Assembly: GCF_057098645.1 (NCBI RefSeq)
Contig: NZ_CM169472.1
DNA: 64,000 nucleotides
Direction: 5' to 3' (one strand)
In this document: positions 51,201 to 54,200 of the stretch, piece after piece
Numbering within the stretch: position 1 is the first letter of the stretch
Layout of the letters: every line of letters starts with the position of its first letter
Position numbers: made by a program

Positions 51201-54200
51201 CGCTATATACCGGCCCCAGTTTACGATGAAAGCCGTTCGCCAGTTCCTGCGCCTGATGAATCGCGTTATCAATCGCTGCCTTACGCGCTTTGTCTTTATA
51301 GGCATCTGGCTGCGCCACGCCCAGCGACACAGAACGAATTTCGTTAAGACCCGCCTTCAGCGCGCCATCCAGCAAGGAATTCAGTTTGTCTAACTGACGG
51401 AGCGTGACTTCCACCGTTCTCACAGCGCGGTAGCCTTTAAGGATACTTTTACCATCCTGATAATCATAATCTGGCTGGGTGCGTAAGTTCGCTGAGCTGA
51501 TATCTTTTTTCGCGATCTGATTGAGTTCAAGGAAGGAAATGTATTGTGCGACGCGCTCATCTGCCTGTTTCTTGGCAGTAGCGGCATCCTTCGCGGCCAC
51601 GTTAACTTCAATCGCAAGAGTGGCAATGTCTGGCACCGCATCCACACTTGCCGTACCGGAGGTGACAATATGCGGTCCATCCGGCAATTCGTTAGCCTGC
51701 GCCGCCATCCCGCTAATACCCATTAATGCCGCCAGGGCGATAACTTTGAACTTCACGTTAGTCTCTCCGTGTTAATTGACTTGCCCAAAATTCAGGACCT
51801 CTGGAGGCAAGCTTAGCGCCTCTGTTTTATTTTTCCATCAGATAGCGCCTAACTGAACAAGGCTTGTGCATGAGCAATACCGTCTCTCGCCAGCTGCAAG
51901 GCTATAAACCACATGACACATCCCACTACCAGATTGATAATGCGCTGTGATTTTGCCGTGCGCAGGCGCGGTGCCAGCCAGGCTGCGAGAATAGCCAGAC
52001 CAAAGAACCACAGGAAAGAGGCGCTAATTGTCCCGAGCGCAAACCAACGTTTTGGTTCGACGTCAAGCTGCCCGCCAAGGCTGCCCAGTACAACAAAAGT
52101 ATCCAGGTAAACATGCGGATTCAGCCAGGTCACTGCCAACATGGTGGCGATAATTTTCCATCTTCCTTGCTTCAGGACTTCGGCACTGGCTAACTCAATA
52201 TTACTGCTCATTGCTGTTTTAAAAGCGCCAAAACCATACCAGAGCAAGAAGGCTACGCCGCCCCAGGTGACCAGCACCAGCAACCACGGCGACTGCATCA
52301 ATAACGCGCTGCCACCAAAAATCCCGGCGCAAATCAGGACCAAATCGCTGATAGCACAAAGTAAGGCAATCATAATGTGGTACTGACGACGAATGCCCTG
52401 ATTCATCACAAAAGCATTTTGTGGACCGAGCGGTAGGATCATAGCTGCGCCAAGCGCAAGACCTTGAAAGTAATAAGATATCACGTAATTTATTCCGAGC
52501 TAATTATCTGATTTGCAGACTATAGCGTGTGAGCATCATTAGAGGAAATGGATATTTTTAATAGCATATTAATAATATTAATAATAAGAAAACGAACAGT
52601 CAGGATGCGTGGCTATTTTTTGGATAACAATATCGCTCACAGGAATCGTGCTACGGCCATTACGGCCTCGCTTTATAAAGGACTCACACAATGCATGCTT
52701 ATGATCTTACCCTCTTGCCCCATCCTATCCGCGAAAATATGCCGCGCCAACAAGGTTGGTGCTTTGGCCTACCGCCAGGCATAACGCCCGAACAGTGGCC
52801 GCTGGATCCAAATAATGGTTTCCCATTGAATCATGGATTTACCCTGCTGTTGCCGGAAGATTATCGGATTTATGGGCCAGAGATTGTCGCGTTATCTTTC
52901 TTTGCTGTTGCGCCCGAGCACAACGATGGCGGAACACCATGTATAGAAGAATTATTGGATGTGTTTGAGAATTTTGAGTCCGGAATACCCCCCGAAGATC
53001 CAGACCTTTATGTTTTCTGGCTGGCAGAAAAGCAACGACATCCACGGCTATTTCGGATGGAAGATATATTAGGTTGTTCTTATGCGGTGATTTTACTCAC
53101 CCAGCAAGAGTTCAACGGCCCATTTTGTGAACCGCCTGAACTTATACCTAATCACTATCGCAACCAGCAAGATACACCAGAATGGATGACCACCGGCAGT
53201 GCGTTTAGTTATTTTCAGGCAAGCGTCAGACCAAAAGATACGCCTGAAAGCAATTTTGTATATCGTAAAATGGGCACCATTCCTGAGCAGTCGCTGGCTT
53301 TCAATCTGGCGATTTCATGTAAGCCGCGCGCTTTTGATCCTAATGCGGGAATTAGCCCCACAGAAAGAAATAATACGGAATATCAGTCCATTCGTTATTT
53401 TTCTAAAGATGCAGAGGGAAAGAGTAAATGTGAAACTCACCAGTGGCATAGTGCACATCAACCCGATCATCTCGGTGGTTCAATGGTTCCATTGCAATCT
53501 ATACCAGATGGAATGTCACCTTTTTATATTGAATTTGAAGAATACTTCGGCGGGTATAATTTTGGTACTGGCAATGCGTGGCTGGACTTTAAAAATATGA
53601 AGTTCGATTTTAGTTGTTAAAGTTCACGGCTTTTAATATTAATGACGACCAATAAAATTACAGATGGAACTGAGATGACATTCAAACACTTTTTACTTTC
53701 TCTGGTATCAGGATTACTTCTGATATCTTCCCACAACGTTGCCGCTGAAAAAATTCTTCGTTATACAGACCATGAACCCTACGGGGGAATGCGTACACAA
53801 ATAATTAAAGAGATATTTTTTGCAGAAATTGAAAAAGAGTCGCAGGGGCGTTTGAAAATCGAACCACACTGGAACGGTGAAACCGCCATCAGCTATGACG
53901 CTCTGACGACAATAAGTGATGGTAGCAAAGCTGATATGGGTATAGTGGTACCGGAATACACAGCGAAACAATTACCGCTTCATCAAATCTTCAAGAGCTT
54001 TGCTATTGGCCCGGATCATGGAGCCAGTCAGGTAGAATTCTTTCGTCGCGTATATGCGGAAATTCCCGAATTTAACGCTGAACTTGAGCGTAACAATATC
54101 GTGAATTTACAGTTTTTCCTTGGCTACCCGGTAGGCTTTTTCTCTACCAGGCCCATTGATAAATTGACTGCACTTCAGGGAACCACCTGGCGAACAGCCA

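Follow-up and report, generated by a model that had tools for sequence, protein, structure and literature searches.

The TYPP superfamily (Tsr4, YwqG, PDCD2L and PDCD2) has YwqG as its structural archetype; its defining features are two repeats, a GGxP-like motif in each of them, and a nearly invariant Gln at the base of a pocket (PMC4275035). Its eukaryotic members are essential ribosomal-protein chaperones: PDCD2 and Tsr4 are dedicated chaperones of the ribosomal protein uS5, both TYPP repeats are needed for binding, and yeast Tsr4 recognizes an unstructured N-terminal stretch of uS5 that carries positive charge and that bacteria lack (PMC7736825). Since this extension does not exist in bacteria, the client of a bacterial TYPP protein must differ, and the authors of the uS5 study expect other clients for the bacterial proteins (PMC7736825). 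Bacterial TYPP/DUF1963 proteins are numerous, with 1,667 clusters matching YwqG alone, and have no experimentally known function; YwqG of Bacillus subtilis and Escherichia coli was still called uncharacterized in 2020 (PMC7736825), and no paper was found that gives a function for a bacterial TYPP protein. Here, we analyzed a stretch of 64,000 nt of an E. coli chromosome (contig NZ_CM169472.1 of assembly GCF_057098645.1), hereafter the window, which contains between argO and mscS a gene for a 309-amino-acid protein. A preliminary description made from the sequence had presented this protein as cytoplasmic, without assignable function and weakly related to DUF1963/YwqG-like proteins. We report that it adopts the YwqG/TYPP fold in a confident structural model and that its family is a distinct, separately diverged, small branch of the TYPP/YwqG superfamily that is covered by no Pfam model.

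The superfamily was already known, and UniProt already labels some relatives of the protein DUF1963; what is new here is the divergent family lacking its own Pfam model. No paper was found on the RefSeq accession of the protein (WP_000543444.1) or on the argO-mscS locus.

A divergent family with the YwqG fold

The open reading frame (ORF) at 52691-53620 was recovered with the same ATG start in our ORF listing and in RefSeq, where WP_000543444.1, a "hypothetical protein," has the same bounds in identical E. coli O145:H28 genomes. The product is acidic (isoelectric point [pI] of 4.78 and net charge of about -20), has a grand average of hydropathy of -0.52, and is rich in Pro (10.4%) and Phe (7.8%). 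The Pro/Trp-rich N-terminal and aromatic-rich C-terminal segments pointed out in the preliminary description are present at residues 22 to 58 and 278 to 305. Because the highest Kyte-Doolittle mean over 19 residues is merely 1.01, the protein has no signal peptide or transmembrane helix, as had been proposed; a secreted or membrane protein was thus ruled out by the absence of a hydrophobic segment.

A word-indexed search of 5.8 billion proteins retrieved 399 homologues. Among the matches listed, most were full length at 45 to 55% identity and came from Pseudomonas, Bordetella, Paracoccus, Rhizobiales, and others. The family is small, since only 367 clusters at an E value of ≤0.001 came out of 1.84 billion cluster representatives searched exhaustively with a profile. 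When one genome from each of 100,044 species was scanned with a sequence pattern, 143 loci were confirmed, mostly in Bradyrhizobium but also in Pseudomonas (including P. aeruginosa PA7), Bordetella, Delftia, Sphingomonas, Paracoccus, Xanthomonas, and Escherichia. The family is uniformly acidic, with a median pI of 4.9.

Profile searches did not place the family in any described one. The 309-amino-acid protein had no Pfam match even at an E value of ≤10, none of 64 family members matched a Pfam model at ≤0.1, and none of four distant relatives matched PF09234, a model that Bacillus YwqG proteins, used as positive control, do carry. There was no NCBIfam match either, and none of the PDB sequences was matched with two different family profiles, with YwqG of B. 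subtilis (PDB 1PV5) itself giving no HMMER match. Judged by sequence, the protein is outside Pfam DUF1963 in the strict sense. We also considered a phage or defense gene, which was dismissed: no PADLOC or PHROGs model matched the protein at an E value of ≤1, and tblastn against 50,697 phage records found no relative.

The AlphaFold2 model, based on a 64-sequence alignment, had a mean predicted local distance difference test (pLDDT) score of 95.1 and a predicted TM-score (pTM) of 0.92. It contains 13 β-strands, which fall into N- and C-terminal groups, and a helical insert spanning approximately residues 138 to 194; it forms a single globular domain of two similar all-β repeats, as in 1PV5. Foldseek, which the preliminary description had recommended for such a model, found no match in the PDB and 61 matches in AFDB50 at an E value of ≤0.001, many of which bear the name "DUF1963 domain-containing protein" (TM-scores between about 0.6 and 0.9). 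Of the weak relation to DUF1963/YwqG proposed initially, the YwqG/TYPP fold was borne out by the model and the AFDB50 matches, whereas strict membership in PF09234 was not. The annotation may be changed from "hypothetical protein" to "YwqG-like (TYPP-fold) protein."

To compare the two families at the profile level, residues 40 to 263 of 1PV5 were recovered from the PDB sequence, and 31 bona fide PF09234 proteins were aligned. The hhalign comparison of the family alignment (A4) with the PF09234 alignment (A6) gave a probability of 0.7%, or 1.3% with alignments of 155 and 116 sequences; as the alignments are shallow (effective number of sequences of 3 to 5) and carry no secondary structure, this is a weak negative. 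The sole local match, which was not significant, placed the C-terminal FYIEFEE..GG.NFG on GILQFYIS..YGL.FD of YwqG repeat 1, and this cross-match may reflect the internal duplication.

The family differs from its relatives in several aspects. Identity between the 309-amino-acid protein and B. subtilis YwqG is just 15%. DPNAG and FEExFGGxNFGxGNAQLD motifs set the family apart from YwqG and other PF09234 proteins, as does the longer helical insert of the model. In the motif alignment, the repeat-1 Gln (Q65 of YwqG) corresponds to Thr51, with His48 nearby. The eukaryotic Tsr4, PDCD2, and PDCD2L belong to the same superfamily and have the GGxP-type motifs and the repeat-2 Gln in common with the present family (PMC4275035), a link that is transitive through YwqG. 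Unlike these chaperones, the protein has no MYND or low-complexity insert and no CxxC pairs; the latter, which occur in a subset of TYPP proteins and are not obligatory, were found neither in its sequence nor in the family consensus. The accessible part of the supplement to the TYPP census contains no Bradyrhizobium, Bordetella, or Azorhizobium entries, and its PA7 entries are 238 and 203 amino acids long, unlike the ~305-amino-acid PA7 homologue of our family (PMC4275035).

Conserved residues in both repeats

Both repeats contain a GGxP-like motif. In repeat 1, it is the degenerate G-x-P of F-G26-L-P28-P-G30, and in repeat 2 it is G262-G263-x3-P267. The glycines are invariant, P28 and P267 are near-invariant (alignments A1 and A4), and the spacing is that of the PF09234 proteins. 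Q269, invariant in A4, lies six residues past the GG pair, the same as Q203 in YwqG. The repeat-2 segment HLGGSMVPLQSIP corresponds to HKIGGYASFTQHDP of YwqG (residues 193 to 206 in the YwqG homologue P0264). In the C-terminal region, N290, G292, G294, and D299 are invariant, and GG-x-NFG-x-G...D (residues 287 to 299) forms an invariant motif of the family's own. The signature residues (Table 1) stay invariant when actinobacterial relatives at 33 to 35% identity are included.

These segments were condensed into two patterns, namely, G-x-P-x8-P-x-D-x2-3-G-x-P-[LM] (signature 1, found at 41-60 in P0264) and H-x1-2-GG-x5-Q-x2-P (signature 2), which are in the same order and equally spaced in the 309-amino-acid protein and in P0264. 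Signature 1 was present in 66% of the family and 52% of the PF09234 proteins but in none of 961 unrelated neighboring ORFs or 10,000 composition-matched shuffles. The corresponding values for signature 2 were 84%, 90%, none, and 6 of the 10,000 shuffles. As the patterns were written after both families had been viewed, they corroborate the link to YwqG and are not an independent test of it.

Proposed role in peptide binding

Roughly one in four close homologues has an N-terminal DUF7256 domain (PF23917, about 140 amino acids), for which no PDB sequence relative and no paper were found; a PsbP/Mog1 domain is reported for TYPP proteins of "family four." In the DUF7256 proteins (e.g., Azorhizobium A8I0E8, Rhizobium etli B3PUJ3, and P0022), the C-terminal part of roughly 310 residues falls within the same family, with identities to the E. 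coli protein, which has no PF23917 domain, of 50% for P0022 and 30 to 35% for the Rhizobium copies. Distant members are fused to WGR, TPR, and leucine-rich repeat (LRR) domains (P0206), to TIGR02996 and LRR domains (P0194), to a region that is HEAT-like by eye (P0221), or to helical regions. The fused domains are all protein-interaction modules and echo the fusions of TYPP proteins to WGR, ankyrin, and LRR domains reported in 2014 (PMC4275035).

The 309-amino-acid protein is thus soluble, acidic, and cytoplasmic, and its single domain has the all-β TYPP fold of two repeats. We infer that it most likely acts noncatalytically and binds, in stoichiometric amounts, a partner protein through an extended and probably basic peptide segment of that partner. 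The binding site would be in the pocket and the cleft between the repeats, lined by the G-x-P...WP-x-D...G-x-P-L and H-x-GG-x5-Q-x2-P signatures, where this placement of the conserved residues is assumed from the published description of 1PV5. The role may be that of a dedicated chaperone, or neutralizer, of a client protein, and the acidic charge of the family would fit a basic client, much like the mode of Tsr4. In Escherichia, its gene is an accessory one that sits where argO and mscS meet and that evolves under purifying selection in the lineages that retain it; its adjacency to the TRAP (tripartite ATP-independent periplasmic) binding-protein gene is a lineage-specific accident of a variable locus. 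We give about an even chance to a noncatalytic, stoichiometric peptide or protein binder that is chaperone-like, possibly neutralizing, and uses the pocket between the repeats.

Two observations weigh against this proposal. Sequence profiles fail to join the family to PF09234 (hhalign probability of about 1%), and because sequence-profile methods make no connection, homology to YwqG rests on the structure and the two post hoc signatures. About ten polar residues, including H48, T51, D216, N218, Y231, H260, Q269, N290, and D299, are invariant from Proteobacteria to Actinobacteria, a set that exceeds the usual need of a binding surface and would fit an active site too.

Genomic neighborhoods and a possible function in immunity

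The gene might instead encode an orphan immunity protein against a polymorphic toxin delivered by a type VI or type VII secretion system (T6SS or T7SS) or by contact-dependent inhibition, that is, a stand-alone protective gene that is lost when the threat is absent. We regard this as unlikely, although several genomic contexts speak for it. Immunity-type genes (Rap1a, SUKH, Sel1, and DMP19) adjoin relatives of the protein in about five lineages. Rap1a proteins provide immunity to T6SS amidases, and at three loci in Bordetella genomosp. 1 and 5, the two genomospecies sampled (L011, L016, and L018, about 7840-9430), a Rap1a gene overlaps the stop codon of the homologue by 4 nt. The gene of a 438-amino-acid DUF7256-TYPP protein is translationally coupled, through a 13-nt overlap, to that of a 134-amino-acid SMI1/KNR4 (SUKH) protein on two Rhizobium leguminosarum plasmids (L097, 5563-7271; L098, 5560-7268), and a similar pair is found on a plasmid of Neorhizobium galegae. 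A 56% identical homologue is flanked by a SUKH-ankyrin protein and a Sel1 protein, and DMP19-family genes are near two further homologues. A second Rap1a neighbor suspected in Jannaschia was an alignment artifact. These associations are suggestive, concern a minority of loci, and do not include the window.

In Bacillus stercoris (L104, 7001-11370), about 380 bp separate the archetypal ywqG gene (PF09234) from a YwqH-like/DUF5344/LXG-PT-TG-AHH toxin cassette that follows it on the same strand. No paper was found on a role of YwqG in this type VII toxin system.

An immunity gene would also be consistent with the patchy distribution, the frequent loss and pseudogenization, the acidic charge, the deep allelic divergence inside E. 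coli (dS of 0.5), and the low GC content at third codon positions (GC3). The latter is often below that of the neighboring genes (0.51 versus 0.89 in Jannaschia and 0.40 versus about 0.5 in E. coli), which fits a horizontally mobile accessory gene; two homologues are near type IV secretion genes of the kind found in integrative and conjugative elements, and a few are on plasmids.

However, no toxin gene was seen beside any family member, be it in the window or elsewhere, and the neighborhoods are mostly unremarkable. Pfam and NCBIfam scans of about 175 neighbors from about 35 loci returned mostly unrelated housekeeping genes (glutathione S-transferases, YejK, FliF, an M20 deacylase, an OmpA-like protein, and sensor kinases), and the all-versus-all clustering of about 1,000 neighboring ORFs from 84 loci found no family in at least three genera besides the target and an antisense artifact. 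The gene is usually monocistronic. Moreover, the degree of conservation would be unusual for an immunity protein, with 45 to 55% identity across alpha-, beta-, and gammaproteobacteria, many invariant residues, and a dN/dS ratio of about 0.1. There was no PADLOC match, and no paper was found that ties DUF1963 or TYPP to immunity.

The Bordetella homologues have an N-terminal extension of 47 to 54 residues with a twin-arginine-like leader, RRGxLxxxxGLALGL...AA, which is kept in both genomospecies despite their divergence. They are possibly, as read from this leader, a periplasmic version of an otherwise cytoplasmic family.

Catalysis as an alternative

We consider it somewhat less probable again that the protein is an enzyme, either peptide or protein modifying or a small-molecule hydrolase or transferase, with the conserved His/Asp/Asn/Gln cluster as an active site in the TYPP pocket. 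The invariant polar residues listed above, together with D125, E140, R213, and E284, which are near-invariant across distant phyla, would be in accordance with it, and a catalytic role of TYPP, a "radical" reading, was explicitly left open by Burroughs and Aravind, who defined the superfamily (PMC4275035). Nevertheless, searches by sequence and by fold revealed no likeness to a characterized enzyme; a confident match to such a family is what, according to the preliminary description, would have overturned its view of a protein without assignable function. The experimentally studied TYPP proteins are all noncatalytic chaperones (PMC7736825), the fusions are to interaction modules and not to substrate-related enzymes, and there is no conserved metabolic neighborhood.

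It is doubtful, but conceivable, that this is the first bacterial TYPP protein with a definable role, either as a new class of immunity protein that recognizes a conserved disordered segment of T6SS or T7SS effectors or as a true enzyme with an invariant His/Asp/Asn/Gln pocket. If true, an immunity or enzyme role would be the first prokaryotic function for the widespread DUF1963/YwqG superfamily.

Relation to the TRAP binding-protein gene

The preliminary description had placed the gene first in a module, probably cotranscribed with that of a secreted binding protein across a gap of 22 to 55 bp. The measured gap is close to this, namely, 21 nt to the ATG at 53642 or 54 nt to the RefSeq start at 53675, and cotranscription is plausible because of this short gap and the lack of a terminator-like site between the genes; none was seen in the entire region 52300-54900. 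The downstream gene encodes an orphan DctP-type substrate-binding protein (SBP). Following this arrangement, the TYPP protein could be the cytoplasmic part of a two-gene unit, an enzyme or regulator acting on the solute bound by the SBP, and both genes are indeed on the same strand of one 2.2-kb accessory segment. This explanation is very improbable and was largely refuted by the phyletic pattern.

The phylogenetic profiling suggested in the preliminary description showed that the two genes are gained and lost independently. Among the complete E. coli genomes, about 159 have the SBP gene alone and 37 intact plus about 20 disrupted cases have both, whereas Escherichia albertii has the TYPP gene alone and K-12 has neither. 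In a tblastn search with the SBP against 91 family loci (±8 kb of the homologue), which included other species, matches were obtained in five E. coli loci only. The module is thus an E. coli-specific pairing that is not conserved, and the TYPP gene is not a conserved partner of the SBP gene. Furthermore, one product is periplasmic and the other cytoplasmic, and no DctQ or DctM membrane genes are at the locus, so that the gene does not behave as an accessory member of a DctP-DctQ-DctM operon. The orphan SBP gene should not be read in annotations as an operon partner of the TYPP gene.

In the genomes with the SBP gene alone (e.g., L006, 4978-6021), hereafter SBP-only genomes, this gene lies between argO and mscS with an altered start and signal peptide. 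The leader MHYRQLLPFLLSGFLLLSPSIFA replaces MTFKHFLLSLVSGLLLISSHNVA, with the deletion junction inside the leader at window position 53695/53696.

Selection on an accessory Escherichia gene

That the ORF is spurious or decaying, without function in the strain of the window, has a negligible probability: the gene is missing in 96% of the complete E. coli genomes, and further genomes have it with an interruption or a frameshift, but here the frame is uninterrupted and preceded by a good Shine-Dalgarno sequence, many genera have homologues of full length, the fold is confidently predicted, and dN/dS is about 0.1 over dS values of up to 1.6. The comparison of four divergent Escherichia alleles gave dN/dS ratios of 0.07 to 0.12 at dS values of 0.5 to 1.6, and the gene is therefore under strong purifying selection where it is kept. 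Taken together, the 309-amino-acid ORF is a real, conserved, yet dispensable Escherichia gene.

The 90%-identity cluster of the protein spans E. coli, E. marmotae, E. fergusonii, and cryptic Escherichia clades, in all of which it is named "hypothetical protein," and the gene is present in five or more Escherichia lineages, whether named or cryptic. Two E. coli alleles (window, 52691-53617; L012, 8001-8927) differ by a dS of 0.50, with a dN/dS ratio of 0.12. Such a dS is far above the usual core divergence inside one species; it hints that the allelic lineages at this locus are old or that an allele was acquired from another Escherichia species.

The state of the locus varied over the 5,426 complete E. 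coli genomes, of which 216 contain at least some of the intergene segment and 37 have both genes intact. In about 20 genomes, all O145 among those listed, the TYPP gene is split by an island, and the remaining about 159 are SBP-only. The gene is deleted, split, or frameshifted in most E. coli. The 187-amino-acid 3' fragment of the split gene (from Met123) was present in at least 1,000 public contigs and the intact form in 515, so that the broken gene may be commoner than the intact form in sequence databases. In E. albertii, the segment corresponding to 53622-54784 of the window is missing, and the TYPP gene stands alone between argO and mscS, with its product at 81% amino acid identity. We also considered that the segment is plasmid cargo in E. 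coli, which was rejected, since all 236 places with segment 52486-54759 were chromosomal; two plasmid places arose solely with a query that took in the argO and mscS ends. With its small size, solubility, confident model, and intact, disrupted, and absent states in close strains, the E. coli protein is a convenient handle on the bacterial TYPP fold.

Features of the argO-mscS locus

The coordinates of all features are compiled in Table 1. Several complete genomes match the sequence at 52400-54800 with 100% identity, and the O145:H28 strains RM12761 and RM13516 do so with 99.9%. The number of σ70-like matches, each 9/12 to the consensus, was not above chance expectation. The argO-proximal region that contains them is also kept upstream of the SBP gene in the SBP-only genomes, and a promoter role for it is inferred from sequence. 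Homology between the window and the SBP-only genomes stops at 52584.

Table 1. Features in and around the accessory segment between argO and mscS (window coordinates)
Feature	Position	Strand	Basis or remark
argO	51849-52484	-	Upstream neighbor of the 309-amino-acid gene
Two overlapping σ70-like promoter matches, argO-proximal intergenic	52549..52585	+	Consensus scan
2.2-kb accessory segment (TYPP gene and orphan TRAP binding-protein gene)	52563..54782		Absent from K-12 between argO and mscS (blastn)
Sub-segment lost in about 159 SBP-only genomes (whole TYPP gene and first binding-protein codons)	52585..53695		Junction mapping
Shine-Dalgarno-like AAGGA	52678..52682	+	8 nt before ATG, read from sequence
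TYPP/YwqG-fold protein CDS, 309 amino acids	52691..53620 (stop codon included)	+	ORF listing, ATG start
Repeat-1 signature G26-x-P28...W36-P37-x-D39...G43-x-P45-L46 (GLPPGITPEQWPLDPNNGFPL, residues 26-46)	52766..52828	+	Columns invariant or nearly so
Insertion point of integrase/helicase/IS3 island in TYPP gene	about 52925		Match starts at query position 440 of 52486-54759; annotation of L008
DPNAG motif, residues 216-220, family specific	53336..53350	+	D216, P217, N218, and G220 invariant even with actinobacterial relatives
Repeat-2 TYPP signature H260-L-G262-G263-x5-Q269-x2-P272 (HLGGSMVPLQSIP, residues 260-272)	53468..53506	+	H260, G262, G263, Q269, and P272 invariant in A4
Aromatic/Gly-rich C-terminal strands (FYIEFEEYFGGYNFGTGNAWLDFKNMKF), last three β-strands of repeat 2	53522..53605	+	Model strands 279-283, 295-299, and 304-308
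Orphan DctP-type TRAP substrate-binding protein gene	53642..54718 (RefSeq start 53675)	+	NCBIfam NF037995, 61.6 bits versus cutoff of 50; hydrophobic leader
mscS	54760-55635	-	Neighbor beyond the TRAP binding-protein gene

The island in the approximately 20 O145 genomes (L008, 1-3832) comprises a tyrosine integrase, a DEAD/DEAH helicase, and an IS3 element. In K-12 (L096, 2888-2955), 68 bp unrelated to the window replace the 2.2-kb segment. They contain a GC-rich inverted repeat, GGCCAGAGAGTATTATCTGGCC, which looks like a terminator common to argO and mscS.

The right junction of the 2.2-kb segment lies inside the last mscS codons (window, 54760-54800), and the C-terminal tail of MscS varies with the state of the locus. 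The protein ends in KRVKEDKAA in K-12, is 5 amino acids longer than this in the insert-bearing and SBP-only strains, and ends in KWVKEQ in E. albertii. Outside the locus, at 49953-50864 on the minus strand, srsR (ygfI), which encodes a LysR regulator, is split into ORFs of 203 and 73 amino acids. RefSeq lists it as a pseudogene with an internal stop in an O145:H28 genome of 99.9% identity; K-12 and strain 118UI have intact copies.

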